NCBI RefSeq assembly: GCF_037902255.1
Contig: NZ_CP147990.1
Location: 2,760,001 to 2,792,000, forward strand
Direction of reading: 5' to 3'
DNA from: Candidatus Electrothrix sp. GW3-4
Lineage (GTDB): Bacteria; Desulfobacterota; Desulfobulbia; Desulfobulbales; Desulfobulbaceae
Length of the DNA stretch: 32,000 bases
Part shown: positions 11,756-32,000 of the stretch, in pieces
Numbering within the stretch: position 1 is the first letter of the stretch
Layout of the letters: each line of letters begins with the position of its first letter
Position numbers and translations under genes: made by a program
The notes under the pieces: model-generated
Told to the model about the DNA's origin: nothing
What the model saw: only the letters and a program-made list of their open reading frames with translations
Database searches by the model: none

Positions 11756-11799
11756 CAGCCTTTGTTGCCTGCTCAGTAAGACAACAAAGGCTGTTTTAT
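11756..11799 (+). terminator. Rho-independent terminator
   Basis: A perfect 12-bp stem pairs CAGCCTTTGTTG (11756-11767) with CAACAAAGGCTG (11782-11793) around a 14-nt loop, followed by TTTTAT. It lies downstream of the 11307-11690 gene, and its 3' flank overlaps the intI stop codon. Confidence 0.65.
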
Positions 11800-12800
11800 A
11801 TGTTCAACTTCTCCAGCGGACTTGACAGGCGAGAGATGTCTTTATTCATAACATGGGTGTATATTTCAGTGGTTTTCACGTCGGCATGCCCCATCAATTC
11901 CTGAAGCACACGAATGTTTGTACCGTTTTCCAGCATAGCGGTGGCAAAGCTGTGGCGCAGGGTATGACAGGTGACCCGTTTGTCAATTCCGGCCTTATGC
12001 GCAGCCCGTTTGACAGCTTTTTGTAAACCTGACTCCATAACATGATGGCGTCGTATTTTCCCTGAGCGCGGATCAGCAGATCGTTTTCTGGAAGGGAAAA
12101 CATACTGCCAGCGGGTTTCCCGTGCAGCGGCAGGATATTTACGCGCCAACGCCTCCGGGATATACACCTCACCAAAGCCTGTTTCCAGATCGTTGTGGTG
12201 CAAAAGCTTCACACGATCAATATGCTCCCTCAATTCCGCAACGACAGGTTCAGCGAGAATCGTATTACGTTGCTTATCTCCTTTTCCCAAAATACGAATT
12301 CGCTTTCGATCAAAATCAACATCCATAATCCGTAACCGCACACACTCCATAAGACGCAACCCGGAACCGTAGAGGAGTTTGGCCATCAGAGCATGCGTTC
12401 CCTGGATATGCTTGAAAAACCGCTGTATTTCTTCGCCCCCGAGGACGGTGGGCAGGTTGGGCTTTCTTTTTGAGCGGATGGGCTGAATTTTTTCAGCCAA
12501 GGGCATATCAAAAACATCCCGATAAAGAAAAACGAGGGCGTTCAAGGCCTGACGCTGGGTAGATGCGGATACTTTACGTTCCACAGCAAGATGAGAGAGG
12601 AAGCGTTCAACATCGCCAGCCCCGAGTTCGGCAGGATGAATCTTGCACTCAAAAAAATGAATGTAGCGGAGTATCCACTGACTGTATGTCTGCTCTGTCT
12701 TATAGGCATAATGATGATAGCGAAGAACTTCATGAACTTGCTCCATCAATTTAAGCTTCGGATTTGGACGAAATTTTTGTTTACTCTTTTTATTTTCCAT
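11796..12800 (-). CDS. intI: Integron integrase (tyrosine recombinase, IntI family)
   Basis: 334 aa. The sequence includes LRYHHYAYKTEQTYSQWILRYIHFF, ALNALVFLY, LLYGSGLRLMECVRLR (catalytic R), GKGDKQR (K), HTLRHSFAT (H..R) and GHADVKTTEIYTHV (H, Y). The IntI-specific insertion is present: IPEALARKYPAAARETRWQYVFPS...DPRSGKIRRHHV. This matches the ALxRKYP...W.FP...DPRSG..RRHH patch of known integron integrases. Confidence 0.92.
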   Translation of the reverse strand: MENKKSKQKFRPNPKLKLMEQVHEVLRYHHYAYKTEQTYSQWILRYIHFFECKIHPAELGAGDVERFLSHLAVERKVSASTQRQALNALVFLYRDVFDMPLAEKIQPIRSKRKPNLPTVLGGEEIQRFFKHIQGTHALMAKLLYGSGLRLMECVRLRIMDVDFDRKRIRILGKGDKQRNTILAEPVVAELREHIDRVKLLHHNDLETGFGEVYIPEALARKYPAAARETRWQYVFPSRKRSADPRSGKIRRHHVMESGLQKAVKRAAHKAGIDKRVTCHTLRHSFATAMLENGTNIRVLQELMGHADVKTTEIYTHVMNKDISRLSSPLEKLNI

Positions 12801-12961
12801 GTTAGCTACTGTATATCATAATAAGAGGAAAGATGCAGGTGGAAATTGATAAGTGGACAAAAAATCCACTTTTACCGTGTCAATATCTGAATAAGTGGAT
12901 TTCTGCGGTACCTATTACGGTCAATAGCAGGACAAATTTCCATTTATTAATACTGTTAGGC
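12801..12961 (+). other. attI region with crossover site GTTAGGC (12955-12961)
   Basis: GTTAGGC fits GTTRRRY and is the exact complement of the R'' heptamer of cassette 1 (GCCTAAC, 13356-13362). The region also holds ATAAGTGGA direct repeats at 12849 and 12891 and an inverted TCCACTT at 12865. The left limit of attI is not defined by sequence alone. Confidence 0.6.
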
Positions 12962-12980
12962 ATAAAATAAAATCGTCAGT

Positions 12981-13361
12981 ATGCAGACAATTACAGTGCC
13001 AGAATTAATTTTCGCAGAATATATGTTCAGCTTGACAATAGAGCAGTGGGATAACTTACTTATTGACTTTAAAAACCAAGGATTAGAGAACATAACGCCT
13101 ACTTCAAAACAGTATTTAGAAGATTGTAAAACAAATGAAACTCATTTAATCGCCATAACGGGTAACTTAGATTTCAGCGGCATTACTTTCCCATTTACAG
13201 CTCAATTAGATGTGAATGGCTTCATACTTTATATAAATAAGCCGCATAACAAGCGCGGCTTTATAGATAAACTTCTAGGTAAGTCAAATGCGCATAAACT
13301 TGCCTATGAGCAATTGATTGTACGATTATGCGAAACATATAAAACCCTAAAAAATGCCTAA
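12981..13361 (+). CDS. Cassette 1 ORF, hypothetical protein (126 aa)
   Basis: This is the only sizeable ORF in the 492-bp cassette (12956-13447). Its stop codon TAA lies inside the attC R'' box, as is common for cassettes. I see no clear RBS and recognise no family. Confidence 0.5.
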   Translation: MQTITVPELIFAEYMFSLTIEQWDNLLIDFKNQGLENITPTSKQYLEDCKTNETHLIAITGNLDFSGITFPFTAQLDVNGFILYINKPHNKRGFIDKLLGKSNAHKLAYEQLIVRLCETYKTLKNA

Positions 13362-13453
13362 CAAGTGCATAAACACGGACCAACCAAAGCGGTGCGGTTT
13401 CCGCTGCGCTACAACCGCCCCACTTTGGTTGGCCGGTTATGCTGTCGTTATGC
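13356..13453 (+). other. attC site 1 (98 bp)
   Basis: R'' is GCCTAAC (13356-13362) and R' is GTTATGC (13447-13453). The arms form a long imperfect palindrome: AAGTGCATAAACACGGACCAACCAAAGCGGTGCGG against the reverse complement GACAGCATAACCGGCCAACCAAAGTGGGGCGG. Confidence 0.78.
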
Positions 13454-13503
13454 CTCGAAATTATATAAAGCACCGCCAACGCAAAACTTAATAAGGAGAA
13501 AAA

Positions 13504-13695
13504 ATGGACAACAACAGTATTATTCAATACCTAATAGGCATTGCCCTAACTCTTTATCCGACATGGAGAATAGTAAAAAGAACAGGATTAAACCCAAATT
13601 GGTCAGCTCTTCTACTTATTCCAGGTCTTGGGGCTCTCATCGTCACTTGTATGCTTGCCCTCAGCGAATGGCCATTAAACGATAGGAGGGGATAA
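13504..13695 (+). CDS. Cassette 2 ORF a, small membrane protein (63 aa), DUF805-like C-terminal motif
   Basis: Strong RBS (taaggagaaaaaATG). There are two hydrophobic helices. The motif KRTGLNPNWSALLLIPGLGALIV...LSEWP is a paralogue of the next ORF. Confidence 0.6.
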   Translation: MDNNSIIQYLIGIALTLYPTWRIVKRTGLNPNWSALLLIPGLGALIVTCMLALSEWPLNDRRG

Positions 13696-13697
13696 TC

Positions 13698-13895
13698 ATG
13701 TTTGGTTTAGGGTTTCCAGAATTAATCATAATAATCGTAATACTCTGCATCCTTGCTATACCAGTCTGGCTTCTTTCAAAAATATTAGATAAAGCTGGTT
13801 TCTCAGGTTGGTTTTCACTTCTCGGCATTATCCCAATCGTGAACATTATTGCCTTATGGGTATTCGCCTTTATCTCTTGGCCTGCTGAGCAATGA
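13698..13895 (+). CDS. Cassette 2 ORF b, small membrane protein (65 aa), DUF805-like motif
   Basis: Strong RBS (taggaggggataatcATG), starting 3 nt after ORF a. The motif DKAGFSGWFSLLGIIPIVNIIALWVFAFISWP resembles, from my recollection, the GxSGWW..LL..IP signature of DUF805-type inner-membrane proteins. Confidence 0.6.
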   Translation: MFGLGFPELIIIIVILCILAIPVWLLSKILDKAGFSGWFSLLGIIPIVNIIALWVFAFISWPAEQ

Positions 13896-13913
13896 TAAAA
13901 CAATAAAAATCAG

Positions 13914-14033
13914 GCATAACAATTCGCTCAAGCACGACGCGCGAGCACGCCAGTTTTAACGGCTTCGGCCACCTAACTACAACACGAACTTACTCAACCT
14001 CGGCTAGGCGCGCGTCTTAGCTTTGCGTTAGCA
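13914..14033 (+). other. attC site 2 (120 bp)
   Basis: R'' is GCATAAC (13914-13920), the exact complement of GTTATGC at the cassette's 5' end. R' is GTTAGCA (14027-14033). The left arm AATTCGCTCAAGCACGACGCGCG pairs imperfectly with ...GGCGCGCGTCTTAGCTTTGC. The GCATAACAATTCG... start resembles classical attC sites. Confidence 0.7.
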
Positions 14034-14125
14034 ATGAAAGGGTACTTGACCGATAGCATACTCGGTACCGTAGCCAAGTATAAACCTTTCGATAAAGTCG
14101 TTGCTTGATATAAAAGGAGATGCCT

Positions 14126-14737
14126 ATGTCTTACTTTGATAAAAAGCCGCTCACCCACATAACCCTCTTGCCAAGTGAGGTGCATTTGCATTCAGCGGTG
14201 CTAGTAAGAGCAACCTTAAATAAGCTGTTCGGTTTTGTCGGCCCAAAGGTCGCTGGAATTCAGCCTCTTGCTCCACGCTACAGGGCCCATATAACAAACC
14301 AGCGTCTTCTCATGGAGATATATCCGTATTCCGGAACGGAAAAGACTGTTACGAAATGGGGGCTTAAGGGAGTATCGATGCTGATGGGTTCCTTTGTAGA
14401 CACCCCTCAATTACATGCCCAGATAGCTGTGCAAAAAATGATGTACAATGCAGCAATGGATGAAAATCTTGCTGCTGCAGATGATCCAAACGCGCAGTAT
14501 ATTGCAATTCCATATGATACTCTGACCGTGACCACCTATGGAAGTGCACCATCCTATCTCAAACTTGAGATCCCTGGGGTCGAAGAAGAGATAGTCTTTA
14601 TAGCCCAACTTGATACCGAAGGTCGGTTGCTCCCTAAAGGTAATATTATCGACAACGCAAAGGCGGGATGGGGGCTTTCTCGGGAATTCGCAAAGCTATG
14701 TCAGGAAGCGATAGCCAGTTACCGCTCAAGAGCTTAA
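14126..14737 (+). CDS. Cassette 3 ORF, hypothetical protein (203 aa)
   Basis: An AAGGAG lies 7 nt upstream of the ATG at 14126. The track start at 14120 abuts the RBS. This is the only long ORF inside the cassette (14028-14824). I recognise no family. Confidence 0.6.
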   Translation: MSYFDKKPLTHITLLPSEVHLHSAVLVRATLNKLFGFVGPKVAGIQPLAPRYRAHITNQRLLMEIYPYSGTEKTVTKWGLKGVSMLMGSFVDTPQLHAQIAVQKMMYNAAMDENLAAADDPNAQYIAIPYDTLTVTTYGSAPSYLKLEIPGVEEEIVFIAQLDTEGRLLPKGNIIDNAKAGWGLSREFAKLCQEAIASYRSRA

Positions 14738-14770
14738 TTTTAGGACGTCAAAAAAAAGACTGCAATTCAT

Positions 14771-14830
14771 TGCTAACAAGGCTAATTCAGCCGACGCAAA
14801 AAGCCGCGCGGCTGATTAGAAGCGTTGGAT
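14771..14830 (+). other. attC site 3 (60 bp, classical short type)
   Basis: R'' is TGCTAAC (14771-14777), the exact complement of GTTAGCA at 14027. R' is GTTGGAT (14824-14830) and fits GTTRRRY. The arms AAGGCTAATTCAGCCGACGC and GCGCGGCTGATTAGAAGC pair with two unpaired bases, as expected for attC extrahelical bases. Confidence 0.82.
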
Positions 14831-14835
14831 TAGTA

Positions 14836-16080
14836 ATGAGTAAATATTTGACCAATAAAGGCATTATAGTAACTGCTGAAAATAACAATAAATTTACCCT
14901 GGAAGACATTTTAGGTAATAAGGTTGGATATAGAGATGAAGAATCAATTGAAAATATCGTTAATAAATTCAAATTAAAAATTTGTGCCAAAGAAAATACA
15001 AATAATAATGCATTCGTTAACCCATCATTCCCTTTTTCGATAATTATAAATGATGTTAAAGAATACTTGTTACCAGCAAAGATGGGTTTATTGCTCGATT
15101 TGTTGCGTCAAATCGAAGATGTGTCATTTCAATTAGTAATAGGCAGACAATTTGGAAAGGAAGCATTATCAATATATAAACAATACAATCTCATCAAAGT
15201 CGCAATAAAAGAGGGGCATATAGACAGCAATGAGTACGAAAAAATAGTCAATGATCTTCGCAAGCAAGACAACGAGATTGCTAATGCATTGTTAATAATG
15301 GATGAAATAGCAAGGTTAGGAGACCTTATTAGAACAGAAGTTTGCCACTCTGAATTCTGTCTTATAAACGCTATATATTCAATTAGAAAGCATGTTGAGG
15401 TTGAAAACTCAAGATCAATAATAAAGAGTGGAGGCGAAAGAATATGTTATGGTTTTTACATCGACAGTGCCACATGGCATTTTATTGATTCAATAAAATC
15501 TATTTCAACTGCTTTAGACTCCCTGGCAAAACTAGTAAAATTTATTTTTGATATTGATGTAGGTAAGTTACCAAAGAAAAAAAATGTCCTTTTTGGAGAT
15601 ATGAAACATATTAAAAACTGGAATGGTTCATTAACGACAAATTCACTGACATTATTAAATAATCAGTTTGCAAGCCTCAAAGCAGTAATAAATTTTCGCC
15701 ATCATGTAACTCATAACTCAGGGCTTTTCCACAGCCAGAATTCTATTTTTATTGGTCGCAGAACACCAGCCATAAGCAACTTGGATTTAATATATGGTGA
15801 TTTATTAATGTGGGATAGAAATGGTGACGAATTTTTAACCTCGCAAAGAACTGTAGGTTTCTTCTCGCAACAAAATAATGCTATTGAATTTGCTAACGAA
15901 GCTCTTGAACTAACTGTAAAATATACAGAAAACATATTCAGGATTCTAAGAACTAATGTTCTTGATAAGTGTAACGCAGCCAAAATTAGAGAATTGTCGC
16001 TAATCAGGTTCAACCCAAATGAAACAATTACTTTCAGCAGGCATCAAACCAGTGAGCTTCAACAAACTGTAATTGTATAA
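14836..16080 (+). CDS. Cassette 4 ORF, hypothetical 414-aa protein with HEPN-like Rx4H motif (candidate Abi-type effector)
   Basis: I set the start at the first ATG after the cassette boundary (14825). The track start at 14668 would read through attC 3. The gene is very AT-rich. The motif FRHHVTHNSG (RHHVTH at 15697-15714) fits Rx4-6H in a predicted helical C-terminal half, preceded by the helix DSIKSISTALDSLAKLVKFIF. Confidence 0.6.
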   Translation: MSKYLTNKGIIVTAENNNKFTLEDILGNKVGYRDEESIENIVNKFKLKICAKENTNNNAFVNPSFPFSIIINDVKEYLLPAKMGLLLDLLRQIEDVSFQLVIGRQFGKEALSIYKQYNLIKVAIKEGHIDSNEYEKIVNDLRKQDNEIANALLIMDEIARLGDLIRTEVCHSEFCLINAIYSIRKHVEVENSRSIIKSGGERICYGFYIDSATWHFIDSIKSISTALDSLAKLVKFIFDIDVGKLPKKKNVLFGDMKHIKNWNGSLTTNSLTLLNNQFASLKAVINFRHHVTHNSGLFHSQNSIFIGRRTPAISNLDLIYGDLLMWDRNGDEFLTSQRTVGFFSQQNNAIEFANEALELTVKYTENIFRILRTNVLDKCNAAKIRELSLIRFNPNETITFSRHQTSELQQTVIV

Positions 16081-16210: not shown

Positions 16211-16732
16211 AAGCCCGGCATTATATAGAAAACATCTTTTTGGGCTGAAGGCTGCCTGATCAGACAGATGGATTGAAAGGCTGTTTCGGAGCTGATAAAT
16301 CTGATCTTTGCAATTGATTCACCCTGCTCATAAGGCTTTAGCTGATGAAAAATGGTGTTTTTTGGACATAGGTATCCTTTGCCGGTTGAACCGGTTTTTT
16401 CGAAAACTGACGATGTCGCTTCAGGGTTACATAACCATGCATACCTCCTTTTTTATGCGATGCAAACCGCTGGCCGGAAAGACTATCAGTTGTCCCACAG
16501 AAAAATCATTTTTAGCCTTCTCGTTCTATGTATGAACAACTCACAACGTGAAATTGTCTTGCAACGTGCGGCAGTAATGGGCGTGCCCGACCAGATCGCC
16601 GAAATTGTAGTGTCTCTGTTCTATGACCCAATGTAGGACAATTGGTTCTTTGCACAAATCAGAAACAGACACCGATTAGGCCCTCCATGTTTGCGGGACA
16701 ACTACCGCTATAAAAAAAAACGACAAGAATAT

Positions 16733-18010
16733 ATGAACGAATCAGCAGATGAAACGGCGTGGGAGATGAATCTGAGGATCACCAGGAATGAGGAGTCGCC
16801 AAGCGAACAGACCCTCCTTTTGTTGAGTCACGCTGATCAACAATCACATCAAGACCGGGTGAAGACGGCCTATTACGGGCAAAAGCGTCTTGTGATCAGT
16901 GATGCAGCATCAGGCTCATATCAAGATGTCTCGCTGTTTGCAATAATGAGTTTTCGGTCCGCTGAGCATTGGAACCGTCAAAGTATCAGCAAAGCAATAG
17001 AGGCAGGTGGCGCAGTGCTCCATGAACAGCACGTTACACCGCTGATGTCTCGCCACGATTTGTCTCAGGGAACACAGGAACATCTGAATGAGTTGAAGTG
17101 GCAGGACGACAAGGCAATGGCGGAAGGAGTTGTTTTGTTTGCTGCCAGTGGCGGTGAATGGCCTGTTCCCGGAATAGTCTGTCAGCGTTTTGCACGGTAT
17201 GTGAGAAGGTGCTTTGGGGGGCATCCGGCAATCATCCGTCGTATAGCTACTGCTGAATCATTGCCGAAACGACTTGAGATTATATCCTGGTTTGGAGACA
17301 AACAGGAAAATAATATCATTGAAATCATGCAGAGCACTCAGGCCTCATCTATAAAGTTATCCGAAACTTCTATGCTGTCAAGGGACTTCGGGGATGACCA
17401 ACTTGCCCGATGCATGGAAGCAGCATACCACAGCGGCCCGATCTGCGACGCTGATTTTGAAAAAAATTTGGCCCGTATTCGAGGGGACTTGGAGAAAGAA
17501 CGATGGTTTCCCGCCCTGCTAGGCGTTTTAACCCTCGGATGGTCTCACCCTATAGCAACCATTCCGCAGGATGTGTTCGGTCTTGTGCAGCCGCTCAGTA
17601 GGGCAGATCCTACGGCGGCACAATGTTGTGCAGTACTGGAGAGGGTGCGGCAGGGAGATTTGGATATCACAAAATTGACGGAAGAATTTCAACAAATGCG
17701 ACAAGCTGCTGCCGACCGTGCCTATGTTTTGGATATTTTCCTCGGTACCTTTTTGATAGATGAAGAACCGAGCCAGGCGATCAGCGCATATCTTGCTGGC
17801 CTTCAGGGGGACCCACGCCTTGTGAGCCCTTACCATGACTTGGGCTTGATATTTGAGAGAAAGTATAACCACAATGATGCATATAGATGCTGGGATTTTG
17901 CCAGATGGCTTTCCCCCAACCATCCGATCATGAGCGACGTGGAGGCCTGGGAGCACGATATCCTTGCAGTAGAGGCGGAGGCACCGTTTGGGCAGTTTGT
18001 TTCAATATAG
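16733..18010 (+). CDS. Hypothetical protein (425 aa) with TPR-like C-terminus
   Basis: This is a long ORF. The track start is a TTG at 16691, and I prefer the ATG at 16733 (MNESADETAWEM...). The C-terminal AISAYLAGLQGDPRLVSPYHDLGLIFERKYNHNDAYRCWDFARWLSPNHP looks like TPR repeats. I recognise no other family. Confidence 0.5.
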   Translation: MNESADETAWEMNLRITRNEESPSEQTLLLLSHADQQSHQDRVKTAYYGQKRLVISDAASGSYQDVSLFAIMSFRSAEHWNRQSISKAIEAGGAVLHEQHVTPLMSRHDLSQGTQEHLNELKWQDDKAMAEGVVLFAASGGEWPVPGIVCQRFARYVRRCFGGHPAIIRRIATAESLPKRLEIISWFGDKQENNIIEIMQSTQASSIKLSETSMLSRDFGDDQLARCMEAAYHSGPICDADFEKNLARIRGDLEKERWFPALLGVLTLGWSHPIATIPQDVFGLVQPLSRADPTAAQCCAVLERVRQGDLDITKLTEEFQQMRQAAADRAYVLDIFLGTFLIDEEPSQAISAYLAGLQGDPRLVSPYHDLGLIFERKYNHNDAYRCWDFARWLSPNHPIMSDVEAWEHDILAVEAEAPFGQFVSI

Positions 18011-18351
18011 TCGCGAAGTAACTGGACCGCACGCCGGGCAGGTCTCCCAGGATAAGGACGTGATCTTTCACTACACAACCGTGGCATGTACCCTATCTCC
18101 TAAACCCAGGATTTCGTCATGTTGTGCTGACTTACCCGGAAACTGGGCCTTGTATGCCATTTCTGTTCGTCGGCTCATAGCTTTGCTCCAGGTTTCCTTC
18201 AGACGATTCCTCGCGAAATCGCCCTCGGAATCTGCGCTTACCTGACTTTTACTAGTATTTATGGTCCTGTCTCACGATAGTACCAGGGTTTACGAATAAG
18301 GAAAAAGATCAAACAGGACTTTGTTGAAAATCGTATTGAAGATAAAGTCAA

Positions 18352-22184: not shown

Positions 22185-23357
22185 ATGAACTCTCCAAAAA
22201 TAATCTCAAAAATAGAAGACTTACCTGAGACATTATGGTATCCACAAAAGGGATCAAAAAATATCACGGACCTCTACCGGGGCCAACCTGTTGCCGAAAG
22301 CATTGCTCCCAAGGATATCCGCCCTGAAAAGCTGGTCTGCATGCTGGAGGACTTAAACAAAGAAGAAACCCCGCTCTACGAGCGCCTCCCTGGAGTCAAT
22401 GGAGCAAGCCTGGAACACTGGCAACAAATTCTGATACGTTTGCAGCAAACAGACATTGCTCAGGATGCAGATCTTGATGGGCAACCCCATGCATTCCGTA
22501 AACGGTATTTCCTCAAGATGGCCCAAGCCCCTGGCCTCCCTGACTTTCATTATACCAACGAGACCCGAATCAGAGAAAACGCCTTGAAGGGAGCAGAAAA
22601 TTCGCTCACGGAACGAATGCGAATCGAAACCGCAGAACGTGATATTGAATATCTGGCAACAAAGATATTTGGAGCTCTTGAAGGTGAGATCGGAAAACAG
22701 GATATACGAAAGGTCATAACGGCCCTGATCAACCAATCACCTTCCATCGGGCAGGTTTATAAAGAGCTCCTGCCTAAGCTCGTCGAGAATCGAGCAATGA
22801 TTGGCTGTGAAATTATTGCTCCAGGAGAAATAGCCTCCCAAGCCGGGCAGGATTCCAAACTCACAGCCAAGGAAACAGAAAAAAACGAGCCCCTTAAACG
22901 AGCAGAAACAGCTGAGGAAAAAAGACAGGCAAAGATCGTCTCGTTACAGAATAAATTAAAAAAAATACAAAATAAAGACACGCCCAAACGAGAAGAAAGA
23001 GCAGAAGCAGAGCAACAAAGGCAGACAAAGATCGCCTCTGTCCAGAGTATTATCCGTCGTCTCAGCGAGATGAGCTTCCAGCAAGCAGAGGTGCTTGTTT
23101 ACGGTGACTTTTTCATCAACAAAAATGCCAGTGGGGCCTTTGTTCTCTCCTACAAACATCCCTTATCCGACTATGTTGATCAACCCGTTCGGATCGTAAC
23201 CATGGGGATCAAAGGACTCTCCCCCTCTTATAAAGGTGAATATGAGAAAAATATTGGAAGGTTTAAGTCCCTGAACATCTATGGTCAAGTTACGCAGCGA
23301 TTAAACCTTGATAAGGGGATATATGATATTGTGATTAATCCGTACGCGATTTACTGA
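22185..23357 (+). CDS. Hypothetical protein (390 aa) with charged coiled-coil middle and internal 32-aa duplication
   Basis: The ATG at 22185 has a GGAG 11 nt upstream. The middle region contains ...AEEKRQAKIVSLQ... and ...AEQQRQTKIASVQ..., encoded by near-identical DNA at 22924-22950 and 23020-23046. I recognise no family. Confidence 0.6.
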   Translation: MNSPKIISKIEDLPETLWYPQKGSKNITDLYRGQPVAESIAPKDIRPEKLVCMLEDLNKEETPLYERLPGVNGASLEHWQQILIRLQQTDIAQDADLDGQPHAFRKRYFLKMAQAPGLPDFHYTNETRIRENALKGAENSLTERMRIETAERDIEYLATKIFGALEGEIGKQDIRKVITALINQSPSIGQVYKELLPKLVENRAMIGCEIIAPGEIASQAGQDSKLTAKETEKNEPLKRAETAEEKRQAKIVSLQNKLKKIQNKDTPKREERAEAEQQRQTKIASVQSIIRRLSEMSFQQAEVLVYGDFFINKNASGAFVLSYKHPLSDYVDQPVRIVTMGIKGLSPSYKGEYEKNIGRFKSLNIYGQVTQRLNLDKGIYDIVINPYAIY

Positions 23358-24964: not shown

Positions 24965-26920
24965 TCAGAGATGATCAGTAACCCATTCCATGACTGCGGC
25001 AAAGGGATACTGTTCCAACCGCCCGAACAGTTCATGCCTGCTCAGCTTATTCCTGGTCAGACCAGGAGATGACAGACCACAGAGCAACCGGGTAATCTGA
25101 CGTGGGCTCGCCAGGGCCTGCGGGTATTCTCTTTGTACTCGTTGCAGCTTTTCCGTCAGGTTATCCTGCTCCGACACAGGCGTGTTGGCTCTCCCATTGA
25201 TCAGCGTATTATTCTTTTCCTCCAAACAGAAAGAACAATGGCCGCAGTTGGCTGGGCGTTCCTCGCCAAAATAGCGGAGCAGGAAGCCGGTCTTGCACCC
25301 CGGATGATTCACCAAATCCACCACCAGTCCCAACCGATCCAGGTCACTCTGCTCCCGTTGAGCAAAGCGCTTGACCAACTCGTCCTTAAGGGCGACAATA
25401 TCCAGATGATCAGCAGCAAGCCTTCTGAAACCAAGACGTGCTCCGCTGACCTTGAGCACCAGATCCCCCTGCTGTTCCAGATAATCCAGAGCCGCGATCA
25501 CCCGTTTCCTCGGACTGCCCGTCCGTTGTGCCGCCTCATCAAGATCAATACTGAACCAGATCTTCTGCTTGACTGCGCAGGAAAGAAGCCTCTTAAGAAA
25601 TGCCTGATGTTCTGCATCAAAGCGGGGTAGGATCTCCACAGACGGCCGTAAGGGTTTAAAGGAGTAGCTGCTATAAAACGGGCCCGTGGATGCAAGCAGC
25701 CCCTCAAGCTCCAGATAGGTGAGCAGGGTCTTCACCACCAGCGGCCGCATATCAAACTGTCCTGAAAGATCATAAATGGAACAGGAAAACACCGCCTCCT
25801 GGCCAAGGATATGATCGACAAACGCCTGCACCTGCTCAGGCTCCGGGGTATCGCCGTAGACAAAATTCTCCAGCACATGCAGATCATTACCATTGCCGAG
25901 CATAATGCAGACCGCAGGCAGACCGTCCCGCCCTGCCCTGCCGATCTCCTGGGCATAGTTTTCCAGGCTCTTTGGCAAGTTATAATGAAAGACCGCCCGG
26001 ATATTACTCTTATCAATCCCCATACCAAAAGCAATGGTGGCAACCACCACTGCCTCGTCCGAGGCCATAAACCAATCCTGAACCTCTTGGCGTTGTTCAT
26101 CCTTCATGCCAGCATGATAGGGCCGGGCCGCAAAGCCTGCCTTGGCCAGCAAACCAGCCACCTGCATCGCTGTTTGCTGCAGGGTCACATAGACAATGGT
26201 CGGTCCTGAGCTCCCGCTTTCCTGCTGCTCAGTCAATCGACGCACCAAGGCCTGATCCGGCTCATCATTGGGCTCAAAGAGCAGACTCAGGTTGGGGCGA
26301 TAGAATCCGGTCTGGATGCAGTCCGATTCAGCAACAGAAAAACTCTGGCGGATATCCGCTGCCACCTGAGGCGTTGCCGTGGCCGTCAGACCCAACACCG
26401 CAGGCACGGCAAAGCCCTTGGCCAGTTCTGCCAGCTTGAGATAATCAGGACGAAAATTATGGCCCCATTCGGAAATACAATGGGCCTCATCAATGACCAT
26501 GAGGGAAAGTCGGAGCCGGGACACCAGGCCCACAAAGCGCTCATTGGCAAAGCGTTCCGGAGCCACATAGAGCAGCTTCAGTTCATTACCTTGCAGTTGC
26601 CCATACACTGCATTGACCTGATTGAAATCCAGAGAGGAATCCAGGCGGGCTGCTGCGATCCCTTTGCCGATCAGGAAATCCACCTGATCCTTCATCAGGG
26701 CCATGAGCGGGGAGATCACCAGGGTCAAGCCAGGAAGATGGAGGGCGGGCAGCTGATAACAGAGGCTCTTGCCCTGGCCAGTGGGAAAGATTGCCAAGGC
26801 AGAACGACCCGCCAACACGGCAGATATTACCACCTCTTGGCCAGGCAGAAAGGCGTCAAAGCCAAAGACCTGTTGCAGGGTTTCTCCGGGCGTACTCGTT
26901 ATACTCGTCAATGCGGTCAT
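24965..26920 (-). CDS. recQ: RecQ-family ATP-dependent DNA helicase
   Basis: FGFDAFLPGQEEV...TGQGKSLCYQLPAL (motifs 0/I), VIDEAHCISEWGHNFRPDY (DEAH, motif II), LTATAT, IAFGMGIDKSNIR and QEIGRAGRDG. A cysteine cluster CGHCSFC sits near the C-terminus. A strong RBS GGGAGGAGG lies upstream. Confidence 0.9.
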   Translation of the reverse strand: MTALTSITSTPGETLQQVFGFDAFLPGQEVVISAVLAGRSALAIFPTGQGKSLCYQLPALHLPGLTLVISPLMALMKDQVDFLIGKGIAAARLDSSLDFNQVNAVYGQLQGNELKLLYVAPERFANERFVGLVSRLRLSLMVIDEAHCISEWGHNFRPDYLKLAELAKGFAVPAVLGLTATATPQVAADIRQSFSVAESDCIQTGFYRPNLSLLFEPNDEPDQALVRRLTEQQESGSSGPTIVYVTLQQTAMQVAGLLAKAGFAARPYHAGMKDEQRQEVQDWFMASDEAVVVATIAFGMGIDKSNIRAVFHYNLPKSLENYAQEIGRAGRDGLPAVCIMLGNGNDLHVLENFVYGDTPEPEQVQAFVDHILGQEAVFSCSIYDLSGQFDMRPLVVKTLLTYLELEGLLASTGPFYSSYSFKPLRPSVEILPRFDAEHQAFLKRLLSCAVKQKIWFSIDLDEAAQRTGSPRKRVIAALDYLEQQGDLVLKVSGARLGFRRLAADHLDIVALKDELVKRFAQREQSDLDRLGLVVDLVNHPGCKTGFLLRYFGEERPANCGHCSFCLEEKNNTLINGRANTPVSEQDNLTEKLQRVQREYPQALASPRQITRLLCGLSSPGLTRNKLSRHELFGRLEQYPFAAVMEWVTDHL

Positions 26921-27064: not shown

Positions 27065-30000
27065 TTACCCCGACGTGCCGGTCAGTTGCATAAAATGAAG
27101 GAGATACTCCTCCGGCATTTTTTCAGGATGAATTTCAGACGTACGCTTATTTCCACAGGAAGCCCATATAACACCATGCTGCCCATGTGCTATCTTCCGG
27201 ATTTTCTCACCCTGCTCACTGACACTATGATACTCAAAATATACGGTAAACCCTTCCACAAAAACTTTACAAAGATACATTGAGACCTCTATAATCTCAA
27301 AAGGCATAGCCTCTTGCAGATGATGTACCTCTGCATGCACACAGACAAAATCACCGTTAAGATCCTGAGAAGATATATCTGAAAACTTTGTGGCAAGATA
27401 ATAATCACGTACCCGTGCCTGCCAGTTATAATACTTGGAGAAATAGATATTACCAACCAAATTTGAATCCTCTCGGGATGTGAGAAATTGCTGCTGGTAC
27501 AACATATATTGTTTTCTTTTGGAAATACCTGCTAAAAACAGAGGTGCAGCTTTTGAGAAGAACGGATGTCTATTCTTGCCCGGCGGCTCAGAATCATCTT
27601 GAGAGCGAGAAAGCTTCTCAAGATATGCTCTAAAATACTCAGGCAGAACAGCTGGCTGAACATTGCCATGTCCCTCAACTTTGACCCAGGTGGTTGCAAG
27701 CCTCCCTGAGACAGCCCGAACCAAGCTACCATCCTCCTGTTTTTTAAACCACTTAAATGCCAAGGACAGAAAAGATCGGGCAAGATCGGTATCCTCCAGC
27801 AAACGGACCTCGCCGATTACAGTATCATAGCTATCCAACAGCCGCTCGACAGAAAAAAAAGACCTGTTCGTCACCATCCCCCATTGACGACTTTTCATAT
27901 CTTGCACGAGAAGATCGGCTATGGGCAACAGGGCTAATTCCCTAAGTTCCCCCATCCATACCGGGATATTGGTGAAATAAACCTTTCCCCTTGGCCCCCT
28001 GCCCTCTAAAAAGGTCGTGGTAAATTCGTGGGTAAAACTGCCTACCTTATTCGGCCAACTCTCCGTATTTCCAGACACAGGTACCTGCTCAGGACGGGTT
28101 GCCTTACGACATTTTTCTGGCACAACCATGGCCAGCATCCGTTCGCCTCTCAGGGTAAACCTGACCGGAAAGGTGAGAACACAACAATCACCGTATATAA
28201 ACAACACGGTATCGTCTTTTTTCTCGGAAAGGCGGAGCAGGCTCGTATCAGGCCAGATTTCCAAGGCCTTAAAAACAGCCTCAAAGGCTGTCCATAATCT
28301 GGTTCCGGCCCGAGCCAGGCTGTCTCCCTGTTCGAGCAGACGGGTAAGCACGACCTCACTCCCCTCCCCCAGCAAACCTTGCCATTCCTCTCTTGTCCGG
28401 CTGGCTATGATTTCAAGATCGCAGCCCTGGGATTCTTGCCCCGCTGTACAGACAATGGTCCCCTCATTATGTGTCAGAGAAAAATGCACCCCAGCATCAG
28501 TGGGAATAGCAAGGGAAGGTTTCCCCTCCTGTGACCAGGAAATTTCGATACGAGTGTCTGAGGCGTCCAAAAGAGGCGCCAGGGCCTTCCTGATGAAGGG
28601 CAGCTCTTTTTTCCGCCGCCCCTCTTTACCAAGATGTTGGAGAGAGCAAATAAAGTCTGAACTGACTTCTGGGAGCATACAATGGGCAGGCAAAAATGTT
28701 TCTCGTTGTTTTAATTCGCTCAGCAGAATTTCTTGGTCGCGATAGCCGGGAGCCACCAAGTCCTCTGCGGTTGGATTGCCCTGCTTGTATTCGATAATCT
28801 GCGCCCGATAACCTGTTATCCGTTCAATAACCTGCCCCTGTTTATTAAAGGCGGTCACCGTGCCGAAAATATATTTTTCCGTATGGTCTTCGATACAGGT
28901 TTCTCCCCACACAGGTTCCTCAGGACTGATCGCTACAGGAAAGCGCTCAATACGTTGAATACGGGCAGGCAAACAGAGGTCCCTGGGAACCGGGAGCTGC
29001 CCTGACTGCAGGAGTGCATCCCGCAGAAAAGGATCTCCAAGCACCCATGTTCCCCCAAAACGTTCTGCGGAATCAAGCAAAGGGGCAACGGTAAAGAGAC
29101 AGCTCTCAGAACTGAGCTGGAAGACCTGTTCAATTCTCTGATACAATGGCCCCTGAAAAAGCAATTCTTCTGTATAGAGATCCGTCTCAGGAATAAGACC
29201 AAGGGGGGAGGGCTGCTCCAGCACATCGTGCCGGAGAGGCGGGGTATCCTCTTTCAACACAAAGGTCGCTGTAAAATGATCAACACGGAACTCGGTCTGT
29301 TCTGTGCGTATCTGCACCTGAACCTGGGGTTCGCTATCCAGATCATCCTGCTCAAGAACTAAGGCATGGATCTCAATTTCCGCTCCGCTCTCCTCAGGCA
29401 CAATAATTGGGCGTGCCAATTCAATATCCTCAATACACACCGCATCAAAGCAGCTTTTCCCGGTAACCGTCCATACCACCTGGGCCATCGCCTCAAGCCC
29501 GAACACCAGAGGAAAAAGATAGGTACCACGCCAGCAATGCTCTTTGATATAAGGATCATCTGCTAAGGTCAGTTGTGTTCTGGAGATAATCTCAATCCCT
29601 GGTTGATAATTACGCACCCTGTCAATAAAACGCAATCCTGACGGAAGTGCTGGTCCATGAGCAGCAAAGGTGTCCAAACCAGAGGTTCGAGCAGTGACAA
29701 TGACTTGGTCCGCAACAGGATCATGGGTGGCAAGTTGGAGAAACCGGGAAGTTCCCTGCTGAATGGATAAGGCCTCCACCCCTATTTGGCTCAACCACGA
29801 GGTACTACCCATCCGAACACCCATCCCCACCTCGTCCCAAATGCTGAAGGCGACACAGAGGGTGCGAGTACGAGGCTCGGTTTCCCCATACTGGCGCAGA
29901 AAAAGATGCAGGGCCTCATTGGAAAAGCCATACCAACCGTTCTTCTTCATTCCAGATATTCCCACAAGAGACGAAAAGGCCATAAACAGCTGGGGAGGGT

Positions 30001-32000
30001 GATCGTGCAACGCCGTGCAGAGATTCATGGCCCCGATTATTTTAGGCTGGATCTCCTCCAGGGCCTGCCCGACAGATACATGACAAAGCTCACCAGGTCG
30101 ATTCAGAGCACTGCCATGAATAACGCCGCTAATGGTTCCCTGTTCATTCTCTACCTGACGAACGAGCCGCTTCACGGCCTCAGTATCTGTGACATCGCAT
30201 TGATAATAATGTGCTGAAAGACCGGCCTCGTTGGCACGCTTCAGGGTAGAGAGGATCTCATCCTGCTGTTCATTGCGCATTGCTGGTGAAGAACTGCCCA
30301 CCAAGGCCAGCTGTACCCCGGTAGCACGAGCAAAGGCCAACACGCATTCCGCAGTAATGCCTTTTGCCCCACCAGTAGCAAGAATCACATCTTTTGACGA
30401 CCATGGTATGGGCCGCGCTTGATCAGCAGCAATATTCCTTACAACAGGCCGGGGAACCCGACGAATCTGATCGGCCGCATAACCAACAGCTGCATAGTGC
30501 TCAGCAGTGCCCAGTTCCAGCAGTATATATTCACAAAGCTTATCAGCTGCAATCTGCGGCGAAAAATCAAGCACCCTCACCTTAAGATCAGGTTGTTCAA
30601 GATGATAGCTGGCAGCCAAGGCCTTTGCTGAACAGCGGCGAATATTCACCTTCAGCGGCCCATCACCGAAAAATCCATCCCCAATTTGCACCACAGCAAG
30701 CATCTGATTTGCCCCCCCGGTTCGGTGAAAAGAGGGTGAGAAGATGGTATGCAGCCTGATGACCTGGTCAGCCAGAGCTTGCTGATCAAGAGATTCATCA
30801 GATTCCTGCTGCGGCAGCAGGGCAATGACATAGGTAAACCTGGTCAGCAGGGAAGCGATCGTTTGGCGCGCATCTAGAAAAGGGATGAGTTCCACCTTGA
30901 CTGTAAAACGATGTAATACCCCCTCAAGCTGTTCTGCAAGAGGCCGTTCAGTTGGCTCAAAAAGGATCAGGACCTCCTCTTCCCAAGGCAACAGGTCATG
31001 TCCAGCTACATCTTCTGGAAGCGCCTCAGGAAGGTATTGCAGGATAAAATCACGGACCCAGCCAGGATACCTCGGAGAATTATTCTCAGCAATGTCCTCC
31101 AAGGGTTGCTCTGGTTCCCTGTCAAGGAGTTCAGTCAGTTCCTGCAGGGTGGCGTTGGCGTATTCGAAAACATTCAGTTTGGCGGCAGCCACCCCTGCCT
31201 GGCTTGCAGCTTCGAAAAGCAACTCAGAGGCCTTGATGGAATCAAGATTCAGGTCATCCAGGAGGCGAAGATCCATAGAAAGGCTTTCCGGTGGAAAGCC
31301 GGTTCGTTCTGCAATCAGGGTAACCAGTAAGTCAGCACAGGATATCTTCTCTCCCTCAGCTCTCTCATCGACACCGGGTACCTTTTTCTCGGATAAAGCA
31401 GGCAGGGGATGGATGGGGATCAGCTTCCGGGGGGAATCAGAGGGGACGGGCACGGGCCCCAAAGAGACCAGATTATCAAGATCTACCCTGATAAGATCCC
31501 CGAGAAATCGGCTACGCTGCCCCAGATAAGCAGCCAATTTTTCCTGTGAAATACCAGCGGATTCAGCAAGGAGACGATCTGTCTCGCCAAAGTTACCCTG
31601 CTCTGACAAAGGGACCGTTGCTGAAGGAGATGCCTCATCTTTTTGCTCTGCAAAAGGCAGTTCGCAGGGGTTGCTCAAAAAAACACGTTCATCCACCGGG
31701 GTAAAGGGACGAATAAGACGGTCTGCATACAGGGCATGCCAGTTGATTGTTCCGCCACGGACAAAATAGTTTGCCAAAAAGAGATTCAGGTCCCTGTCCT
31801 GTTCCGGTTCTGTTTCAAGAGGGAAACAGGACGGAACCAGGCCTTCATCGTTTATTGCAAGGGTCTTGTGGGCAAGCCCCGTCAACACCCGCCCCGGCCC
31901 CACCTCTAATAGCAGATCGCATTCCTTGCCCATCTCCTGAACCAAGGCCATAAAATCGACCGGAGAGGTCACCTGTGCTGAAAAATGTCTCCTCAGATCG
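27065..32000 (-). CDS. Iterative type I polyketide synthase, 5'-partial: ...AT(C-term)-ACP-KR-DH-PPTase-tandem hot-dog (thioesterase-like)
   Basis: The frame stays open upstream of the GTG at 31972 to the window edge (..DLRRHFSAQVTSPVDF..EVGPGRVLTGL, the end of an acyltransferase domain).
- ACP: LDDLNLDSIKASEL, with Ser at 31238-31240.
- KR: ILATGGAKGIT Rossmann motif at 30353-30376.
- DH: HCWRGTYLFP (HxxxGxxxxP), with His at 29537-29539.
- PPTase: VHFSLTHNEG, GCDLE at 28412-28426, and WTAFEAVFKAL.
- Two C-terminal hot-dog-like units follow (..KVYFTNIPVWMGELRE..; ..NLVGNIYFSKYYNWQARVRDYYL..). Confidence 0.88.
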   Translation of the reverse strand, partial: DLRRHFSAQVTSPVDFMALVQEMGKECDLLLEVGPGRVLTGLAHKTLAINDEGLVPSCFPLETEPEQDRDLNLFLANYFVRGGTINWHALYADRLIRPFTPVDERVFLSNPCELPFAEQKDEASPSATVPLSEQGNFGETDRLLAESAGISQEKLAAYLGQRSRFLGDLIRVDLDNLVSLGPVPVPSDSPRKLIPIHPLPALSEKKVPGVDERAEGEKISCADLLVTLIAERTGFPPESLSMDLRLLDDLNLDSIKASELLFEAASQAGVAAAKLNVFEYANATLQELTELLDREPEQPLEDIAENNSPRYPGWVRDFILQYLPEALPEDVAGHDLLPWEEEVLILFEPTERPLAEQLEGVLHRFTVKVELIPFLDARQTIASLLTRFTYVIALLPQQESDESLDQQALADQVIRLHTIFSPSFHRTGGANQMLAVVQIGDGFFGDGPLKVNIRRCSAKALAASYHLEQPDLKVRVLDFSPQIAADKLCEYILLELGTAEHYAAVGYAADQIRRVPRPVVRNIAADQARPIPWSSKDVILATGGAKGITAECVLAFARATGVQLALVGSSSPAMRNEQQDEILSTLKRANEAGLSAHYYQCDVTDTEAVKRLVRQVENEQGTISGVIHGSALNRPGELCHVSVGQALEEIQPKIIGAMNLCTALHDHPPQLFMAFSSLVGISGMKKNGWYGFSNEALHLFLRQYGETEPRTRTLCVAFSIWDEVGMGVRMGSTSWLSQIGVEALSIQQGTSRFLQLATHDPVADQVIVTARTSGLDTFAAHGPALPSGLRFIDRVRNYQPGIEIISRTQLTLADDPYIKEHCWRGTYLFPLVFGLEAMAQVVWTVTGKSCFDAVCIEDIELARPIIVPEESGAEIEIHALVLEQDDLDSEPQVQVQIRTEQTEFRVDHFTATFVLKEDTPPLRHDVLEQPSPLGLIPETDLYTEELLFQGPLYQRIEQVFQLSSESCLFTVAPLLDSAERFGGTWVLGDPFLRDALLQSGQLPVPRDLCLPARIQRIERFPVAISPEEPVWGETCIEDHTEKYIFGTVTAFNKQGQVIERITGYRAQIIEYKQGNPTAEDLVAPGYRDQEILLSELKQRETFLPAHCMLPEVSSDFICSLQHLGKEGRRKKELPFIRKALAPLLDASDTRIEISWSQEGKPSLAIPTDAGVHFSLTHNEGTIVCTAGQESQGCDLEIIASRTREEWQGLLGEGSEVVLTRLLEQGDSLARAGTRLWTAFEAVFKALEIWPDTSLLRLSEKKDDTVLFIYGDCCVLTFPVRFTLRGERMLAMVVPEKCRKATRPEQVPVSGNTESWPNKVGSFTHEFTTTFLEGRGPRGKVYFTNIPVWMGELRELALLPIADLLVQDMKSRQWGMVTNRSFFSVERLLDSYDTVIGEVRLLEDTDLARSFLSLAFKWFKKQEDGSLVRAVSGRLATTWVKVEGHGNVQPAVLPEYFRAYLEKLSRSQDDSEPPGKNRHPFFSKAAPLFLAGISKRKQYMLYQQQFLTSREDSNLVGNIYFSKYYNWQARVRDYYLATKFSDISSQDLNGDFVCVHAEVHHLQEAMPFEIIEVSMYLCKVFVEGFTVYFEYHSVSEQGEKIRKIAHGQHGVIWASCGNKRTSEIHPEKMPEEYLLHFMQLTGTSG

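Follow-up and report, generated by a model that had tools for sequence, protein, structure and literature searches.

The polyketide synthase gene and its domains

The window, a stretch of 32,000 nucleotides from Candidatus Electrothrix sp. GW3-4 (NCBI RefSeq assembly GCF_037902255.1, contig NZ_CP147990.1, positions 2,760,001 to 2,792,000 of the forward strand), ends inside a large gene for a type I polyketide synthase (PKS). The open frame of this gene (27065-31999, minus strand) has 1644 visible codons with no break among them and closes with a TAA stop at 27067-27065. By comparison with full-length homologues, about 880 N-terminal codons, for the ketosynthase (KS) and most of the acyltransferase (AT), would lie beyond position 32000. 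The visible part encodes, in this order, the end of the AT, an acyl carrier protein (ACP), a ketoreductase (KR), a dehydratase (DH), a diverged Sfp-type 4′-phosphopantetheinyl transferase (PPTase) and a tandem double-hotdog thioesterase (TE). The features are listed below, with amino acids (aa) counted along the visible frame.

27065..32000, minus strand: iterative type I PKS gene, 3′ 4.9 kb (open frame; full-length homologues of about 2520 aa)
31610..31999, minus strand: C-terminal end of the AT, aa 1-130 (alignment to AT-bearing homologues and to RerA)
31103..31345, minus strand: single ACP, aa 219-299 (Pfam PP-binding, 224-292; phmmer to 2l9f)
29630..31102, minus strand: KR, aa 300-790 (Pfam KR, 539-722, E 6.7e-24; KR domains in the Protein Data Bank, PDB)
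28745..29617, minus strand: DH, a double-hotdog PKS dehydratase, aa 795-1085 (Pfam PKS_DH_N, 803-880, and PS-DH, 945-1070; 803-1070 together)
28112..28702, minus strand: internal Sfp-type 4′-PPTase, aa 1100-1296 (family profile against Sfp 1qr0; RerB alignment)
27596..28042, minus strand: first hotdog domain (HD1), aa 1320-1468 (AlphaFold secondary structure, Foldseek, tblastn of SgcE10)
27068..27517, minus strand: second hotdog domain (HD2), aa 1495-1644 (phmmer to PDB; Pfam 4HBT_2, 1513-1626; residue map)

The first 130 residues align with the AT end of all 120 AT-bearing homologues, including P0002 of Ca. Electrothrix scaldis (residues 856-981, 69% identity), the nearest full-length homologue whose source organism is named, and also with residues 842-1084 of the polyene synthase RerA. 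The ACP carries its phosphopantetheine-attachment serine, Ser254, in the motif LDSI (252-255; codon 31238-31240), and aa 219-299 match the ACP structure of CalE8 (2l9f; phmmer E 5.9e-8). The KR is composed of a structural subdomain (aa 300-529) and a catalytic subdomain (aa 530-790) with the motifs TGGAKGIT (542-549) and YGFSN (690-694), and the KR domains of PksJ, MlnE and EryAI in the PDB are matched over aa 455-783. The DH motifs HCWRGTYLFP (HxxxGxxxxP; 821-830, with the codon of His821 at 29537-29539) and DALLQ (994-998) are near-invariant in the homologue alignment. In the consensus of the full-length homologues, both the KS (DGACSSS, HGTGT, GHTKAASG) and the AT (GHSLGE) are intact. An earlier reading of the letters, made without database searches (hereafter the sequence-only reading), had recognised the AT end, ACP, KR, DH and PPTase in these 1644 codons from the motifs LDSI, TGGAKGIT, HxxxGxxxxP, FSLTHNEG, GCDLE and WTAFEAVFK. 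All six motifs occur at the positions given for them, and Pfam, PDB, profile and alignment comparisons agree with the five domain assignments.

An internal PPTase followed by a tandem hotdog thioesterase

From the single sequence, the PPTase was not called by Pfam or NCBIfam (ACPS at a sub-threshold E of 0.002). Therefore, its assignment needed a family profile and a comparison with RerB. A profile built from the aligned region of 21 homologues matched Sfp (1qr0, residues 50-193) with an E value of 3.3e-5 and with the motifs GKP, SxSH, GxDxE and WxxxExxxK in register. ACPS was the sole Pfam family matched among the 21 homologues, in 10 of them and each time below the gathering score. The motifs in the window protein are GKP (1159-1161), FSLTHNEG (1173-1180, with SLTH at 1174-1177), QGCDLE (1191-1196) and WTAFEAVFK (1236-1244), and the Mg-binding pair is D1194/E1196 (codons 28418-28420 and 28412-28414). 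An arginine, the G-P of GKP, the S..H of SxSH, the G.D of QGCD and the W...E...K are invariant across the 21-homologue alignment. The motifs, together with the significant profile similarity, place 28118-28675 (aa 1109-1294) in the ACPS/4′-PPTase superfamily, a membership on which the sequence-only reading had made its assignment depend.

That reading had also taken the PPTase for a C-terminal one, the signature of enediyne PKSs, and this did not hold. The PPTase is followed by 348 residues (aa 1297-1644; window 27068-28111) that form two hotdog domains, and it is therefore internal. An AlphaFold (AF2) model of aa 1085-1644, made from 32 sequences and with a mean pLDDT of 86.5, showed two hotdog units that follow a PPTase fold and a disordered linker. 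The top Foldseek matches of the model were the double-hotdog acyl-ACP thioesterases FatA and FatB (E 4e-15, TM 0.66-0.78 over about 300 columns).

HD2 is by its sequence a thioesterase of the CalE7/DynE7/SgcE10 (E7/E10) type. Its phmmer matches were 5vpj (5e-10), CalE7 (2w3x, 1.8e-8), DynE7 (2e-8) and 4i4j, an “ACP-polyene thioesterase” (1.4e-6), and N1513, Y1525 and R1531 (codon 27407-27409) align with N19, Y29 and R37 of CalE7. HD1 retains the equivalent of CalE7 R37 (in WMGELRE) and has lost those of N19 and Y29. In tblastn, SgcE10 matched it with an E value of 0.004 for the window, and relatives gave values down to 5e-6. HD1 is thus a degenerate SgcE10-like half and equals the “unknown domain Y” of RerB. 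A fold can now be assigned to that domain: it is a second, degenerate hotdog, with which the TE becomes a pseudo-dimer like FatA/B. In comparisons with the three closest homologues of the Electrothrix clade, HD1 is the best conserved domain (87-90%; the other domains 53-76%).

The closest characterised relative is RerA/RerB

RerA (KS-AT-ACP-ACP-KR-DH) and RerB (PPTase, “unknown domain Y” and TE; 61.5 kDa) of Rhodococcus erythropolis PR4 produce yellow polyenes, from hexaenes to nonaenes, both in E. coli and in vitro (Prasongpholchai et al., Chem Commun 2024, PMC11563203). KS and PPTase mutants are colourless, while a TE mutant keeps an orange enzyme-bound species (PMC11563203). In the systems tested, RerB and the E7/E10-type thioesterases give decarboxylated hydrocarbons and polyenones (PMC11563203). 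We took the RerA and RerB sequences from the machine-read supplement text of that paper, which contains small errors; a protein-database search for a Rhodococcus homologue of RerB returned none named as Rhodococcus.

Concatenated RerA+RerB (residues 1136-2552) aligned with window aa 224-1633 in a single high-scoring segment pair (34.6% identity, 1471 columns, 661 bits), and RerB alone (residues 7-515) matched window aa 1153-1633 with an E value of 3e-65. The homology runs end to end, with PPTase, domain Y and TE following KS-AT-ACP-KR-DH. The residues D48 and E50 (PPTase) and R415 (TE) of RerB correspond to D1194, E1196 and R1531 in the window protein, where all three are kept. Across the family, the residues tested in RerB are invariant or near-invariant, except for the E, which is variable. 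The tandem ACPs of RerA are not reproduced, since the window protein has one LDSI-type ACP, which aligns to both ACP regions of RerA. From these alignments, the RerA/RerB polyene synthase, and not an enediyne PKS, is the closest characterised relative, and the window gene is a counterpart of RerAB that occurs naturally as a single chain and has one ACP.

Relationship to enediyne and polyunsaturated fatty acid synthases

The sequence-only reading had assigned the protein to the SgcE/CalE8 family, and the homology behind that assignment stands. For comparison, the C-1027 locus (SgcE and its neighbours) was recovered from the Streptomyces globisporus plasmid SGLP1; SgcE was used as the reference in place of the DynE8 KS-AT structure, which did not turn up in PDB searches. 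Window aa 200-1245 align with SgcE 920-1878 in one piece (29% identity, E 4e-97), and the KS-AT part of P0002 (residues 4-969) aligns with SgcE 2-907 at 40.7% identity. Like SgcE, the synthase has KS-AT-ACP-KR-DH-PPTase collinearly on one chain, with KS-AT inferred from homologues. The architecture, however, continues into a fused tandem TE, whereas SgcE stops about 60 aa past the aligned PPTase motif, and the nearest characterised enzyme is RerA/RerB.

This kinship raises the question of whether the gene is the core of a genuine enediyne pathway, or of a related cyclised polyyne pathway, with the E3/E4/E5 and tailoring genes elsewhere or past position 32000. Homology and collinearity with SgcE speak for it, as do the best ACP and TE matches (CalE8, CalE7 and DynE7) and the label “enediyne polyketide synthase” given to relatives by JGI pipelines. 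“Enediyne” KS clades, whose products are unknown, have been noted near Deltaproteobacteria in marine sediments (PMC10308959), and enediyne accessory genes could stand in the unseen region upstream, beyond 32000. However, an E3/E4/E5/E/E10 cassette is reported to be common to all known enediyne clusters (PMC5181780), and it was not found here. Queries of SgcE3 (DUF1702), SgcE4 (CRTAC1) and SgcE5 (RnfD-like), taken from the C-1027 locus (L008), gave no tblastn match in the window’s 27 kb, and none in 88 related loci (1.56 Mb, about 4-10 kb either side) except one weak E4-like match (L047); whole genomes were not part of this search. The E10-type TE is fused to the PKS. The genes upstream of the PKS in close relatives encode transporters and CbiG, and the protein is clearly nearer to the RerAB polyene synthase (661 bits) than to SgcE (335 bits). 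The protein family is thus that of the enediyne PKSs (PKSE), but, without E3/E4/E5 nearby, the surroundings of the gene are not those of an enediyne pathway. Although the choice between an enediyne cluster and a polyene or lipid-type pathway had been left open by the sequence-only reading, the relatives argue against the former, which we consider very unlikely.

A second alternative is a PfaA-like subunit of a secondary-lipid or polyunsaturated fatty acid (PUFA) synthase that makes membrane PUFAs. NCBIfam omega_3_PfaA gave a partial match on KR-DH, but its score of 100 bits is a tenth of the 1010 required for the family (TIGR02813). Similarly, chain 6riw (ORF10), which we take to be a PUFA-synthase KS, can be aligned from end to end with the complete KS of P0002, but the score is 186 bits, compared with 310 for the best PKS KS of solved structure and 494 for SgcE. 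PUFA and enediyne KSs form one superclade (PMC4247773), and PUFA KSs are abundant in deltaproteobacterial sediments (PMC10308959). Nevertheless, the window protein has a single ACP instead of tandem ones, and possesses an in-cis PPTase and an E10-type TE, which PfaA lacks. An enoyl reductase (ER) domain and PfaB/C/D-like neighbours were not found in any relative examined, nor were partners with a FabA-type DH. A PUFA synthase is therefore an extremely improbable identity for this gene, and we return below to the polyene synthase of the PKSE/RerAB kind.

Distribution and genomic neighbourhood of the family

The best homologues (2456-2607 aa) share 62-69% identity over 100% of the visible part and come from Ca. 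Electrothrix and related Desulfobulbaceae. Among the 120 best, 93 carry the PPTase and both hotdog domains. A scan with one genome per species (185,579 species genomes) gave 536 stretches confirmed by tblastn. This number is a maximum, as E10-type thioesterases that stand alone may have been included. The 80 retained loci belong to Desulfobulbaceae/Desulfobacterales, Bacteroidales, Nitrospiraceae, cyanobacteria/Melainabacteria, Thermoactinomycetaceae, Omnitrophota, Bryobacterales, Burkholderiales and Methylococcales. Some versions are split, either into KS-AT and ACP...TE (cyanobacteria) or into KS...DH and PPTase-Y-TE (a metagenome-assembled genome, MAG, of Gaiellaceae). Further split forms are DH-PPTase-Y-TE and a PPTase-Y-TE unit fused to a CrtI-like oxidase. 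In the draft genome of Ca. Electrothrix aarhusensis MCF, the PKS is distributed over four open reading frames (ORFs) of 324, 416, 1122 and 808 aa (L014 3995-11659), which reflects either assembly frameshifts or a pseudogene.

In six of the seven Electrothrix-clade genomes with a visible upstream region (L001, L002, L014, L015, L091 and L092), three genes stand directly 5′ of the PKS on the same strand, with gaps of 14-209 bp:

Upstream of the PKS in relatives: HAE3/MMPL RND transporter (TIGR00921, 1e-52)
Upstream of the PKS in relatives: LolA_like protein (PF17131, 1e-64)
Upstream of the PKS in relatives: porin-like protein of 400 aa (signal-like N-terminus, C-terminal YFF, UniRef “phosphate-selective porin”)

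Some homologues of the porin-like protein carry DUF1302 or PF06980. YB6 and S24.Bin023, the most divergent two of the genomes, retain the trio but not the RecQ-like gene that is found downstream of the PKS. ApeL, ApeM and ApeN have been proposed to place aryl polyenes in the outer membrane (PMC8253772). Since RND, LolA-like and porin-like genes stand upstream of the PKS in most relatives of the Electrothrix clade, the polyene may be delivered to the cell envelope, and by this analogy we infer such delivery with no more than moderate confidence.

The trio was also considered as a constant companion of the PKS and rejected as such, since Ca. Electrothrix sp. AX1 and the loci beyond the Electrothrix clade lack it. 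The AX1 locus (L090 5550-14824) has the same flanking genes as the other strains but no trio between cbiG and the PKS; either the trio was cleanly deleted or its absence is ancestral. No neighbour is conserved family-wide; only lineage-specific CrtI-like oxidases, ABC transporters, HD-GYP regulators and a penicillin amidase were found, and in Laceyella the PKS has no such neighbour at all.

Some neighbours may act on the polyene itself. A CrtI/carotenoid-isomerase-like FAD oxidase adjoins the PKS in seven loci (for example L003 14143-15606) and is fused to the PKS or to PPTase-Y-TE in others (proteins P0014, P0020, P0305 and P0313). In Gloeothece verrucosa, the PKS is on a plasmid and is followed by genes for three flavin halogenases and a carotenoid oxygenase (L009 18232-25522). 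These putative polyene-modifying neighbours and fusions speak for a polyene product.

Regulatory genes also occur beside the PKS. In five loci of the Desulfobacterales type, a divergent neighbour encodes a protein of about 1870 aa with Ser/Thr kinase, AAA, GAF, PAS and HD-GYP domains (L005 4145-9787; L006 4018-9600), and in other relatives, response-regulator/HD-GYP or HDOD genes lie downstream. These kinase and HD-GYP neighbours hint at control linked to cyclic di-GMP.

The neighbourhood also bears on an alternative that shares the same enzymology. A polyenoic acid or keto-acid could be lipid-anchored or modified into an envelope pigment resembling aryl polyenes or carotenoids; or the product could stay in the cytoplasmic membrane, with the RND, LolA-like and porin-like genes unrelated to it. 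The first version has a parallel in aryl polyene clusters, in which a thioesterase, an RND protein and Lol-like proteins bring a polyene lipid to the outer membrane (PMC8253772), and it agrees with the fusion of CrtI-like enzymes to the TE in some relatives. The second accords with the AX1 locus and with the wide distribution of the porin-like protein, whose homologues (1720 matches) are mostly in organisms not known to carry the PKS. However, no acyltransferase or glycosyltransferase adjoins the PKS in the Electrothrix loci, and decarboxylated hydrocarbons and polyenones are what E7/E10-type TEs and RerB give in the systems tested. We regard this alternative as unlikely, though worth keeping in mind.

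Proposed function

We propose that the product of the gene is an iterative polyene synthase of the PKSE/RerAB kind that is self-sufficient, with all functions on one chain, and put the probability of this at about 0.72. Although kin to the enediyne synthases, it is most likely a maker of a pigment or lipid-type polyene rather than an antibiotic gene. The identities of the visible domains are established, their catalytic residues are conserved, and the protein is collinear with enzymes of demonstrated activity.

By homology with SgcE/SgcE10, CalE8/CalE7 and RerA/RerB, the synthase may work as follows. The internal PPTase (D1194, E1196) would load phosphopantetheine onto Ser254 of its own ACP. 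The KS, AT, KR and DH would then iterate malonyl extension followed by reduction and dehydration, without enoyl reduction, leaving a conjugated polyenoyl or 3-hydroxy-polyenoyl thioester bound to the ACP. HD2 (N1513, Y1525, R1531), in a pseudo-dimer with the degenerate HD1, would hydrolyse this thioester, and decarboxylation and dehydration would yield a linear C15-C19 product. This product, with its chain length and fate, is deduced from homologous enzymes; it is probably a hydrocarbon or polyenone in the range from heptaene to nonaene. With less weight, we suggest that the adjacent RND, LolA-like and porin-like genes may deliver the polyene to the envelope, as proposed for aryl polyene pigments.

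Several points weigh against this proposal. Since the window lacks the KS and the greater part of the AT, the integrity of the entire gene is unproven. The window protein has one ACP where RerA has two, and identity to characterised enzymes is only 29-37%, so that chain length and release chemistry could differ. A product is yet to be seen for any single-chain member. The transport trio is outside the window and is seen only in relatives; in AX1 it is missing, and cbiG is followed directly by the PKS. Because the RecQ-like gene is almost as syntenic as the trio, a shared order of genes in close relatives need not signal that they work together. Beyond the Electrothrix clade, the PKS has no conserved neighbours and is often alone.

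On this reading, the gene belongs to a kind of PKS that is already known but barely studied, a large group of self-contained polyene synthases. Sediment surveys that count “enediyne KS” genes as drug leads (PMC10308959) may largely count genes of such polyene synthases. For cable bacteria, the gene points to a conjugated hydrocarbon or lipid undescribed in them and possibly directed to the envelope; a literature search on cable bacteria or Electrothrix with PKS or enediyne found nothing. It is a highly speculative idea, and a most improbable one, that a C15-C19 polyene is sent by the RND, LolA-like and porin-like proteins to the periplasm or the shared outer membrane, the compartment of the conductive fibres, and serves there as an electronic, insulating or redox-protective envelope component and not as an ordinary pigment.

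Other features of the window

The sequence-only reading had placed a RecQ helicase downstream of the PKS, in agreement with our annotation:

24965-26920, minus strand: RecQ-like helicase (DEAD, Helicase_C, RecQ zinc-binding)

Its zinc-binding domain is unusually far along the protein, and the RQC and HRDC domains are absent. This gene follows the PKS in several Electrothrix genomes, with a stop/start overlap in Ca. E. scaldis and a 22-bp gap in L092. A scan for a terminator or promoter between the two genes gave nothing useful, the sole stem-loop being inside coding region. In two Rhodoferax/Albidiferax MAGs (L055 and L062), the PKS has a canonical RecQ gene 2.7 kb downstream of it, which may be coincidence. 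Synteny with Ca. E. scaldis covers the PKS, the RecQ-like gene, a PAS histidine kinase, a 386-aa protein, Uma2 and Cdd1. The counterpart of the 386-aa protein in the window is an ORF of 390 aa (22185-23357, plus strand) without a family match, whose position beside the PAS histidine kinase is kept in Ca. E. scaldis. The window also encodes a DHH-CBS-CCA enzyme. This enzyme and the Uma2 gene had suggested that the DNA came from a cyanobacterium, a reading that was discarded because Ca. Electrothrix supplies both the best homologues and the matching gene order.

The group II intron model D1-D4-3 (RF02001) matched 18057-18220 on the minus strand over its full length (132 bits). Neither a reverse-transcriptase ORF nor a D5/D6 match was found near this element, which is probably an intron remnant; an adjoining ORF of 439 aa (16691-18010, plus strand) has no family match. 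A tyrosine integrase gene (11796-12800, minus strand) is followed by a stretch of low GC content (38-42%, as compared with about 50% elsewhere) that contains four ORFs with no Pfam match (12981-13361, 13365-13685, 14120-14737 and 14668-16080). The region 11796-16080 is probably an integrated mobile element. There is no tRNA gene in the window.

Comparison with known systems

The enediyne systems SgcE/SgcE10, CalE8/CalE7 and DynE8/DynE7 resemble the Electrothrix synthase in being collinear with it from the KS to the third PPTase motif, in their self-phosphopantetheinylating architecture and in the same type of hotdog TE. However, the SgcE10-type TE is a separate protein of 156 aa, whereas the Electrothrix TE is duplicated and fused in cis, and no known enediyne producer is among the organisms with related loci examined. 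FatA and FatB, the top structural matches to HD1-HD2, likewise have two hotdog halves on one chain and an ACP-bound acyl chain as substrate. Identity to them is only 12-15%, and in the Electrothrix protein the active half is the C-terminal one, with the catalytic residues of the enediyne TEs and not those of the Fat enzymes. The likeness to the aryl polyene systems is one of function only, a polyene system beside an RND transporter and a LolA-like protein (here in the Electrothrix relatives); those systems use discrete enzymes similar to type II fatty acid synthases with an aryl starter, and have no homology to the Electrothrix PKS. RerA/RerB has the same domain set in the same order, and forms polyenes without needing the enediyne cassette. 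Whereas the Electrothrix synthase is one polypeptide, RerA and RerB are divided at a point within the PPTase region, and the authors of that study joined them artificially. The host of the Electrothrix synthase also differs, being a Gram-negative relative of the sulfide-oxidising cable bacteria, in whose kin RND, LolA-like and porin-like genes stand upstream of the synthase.

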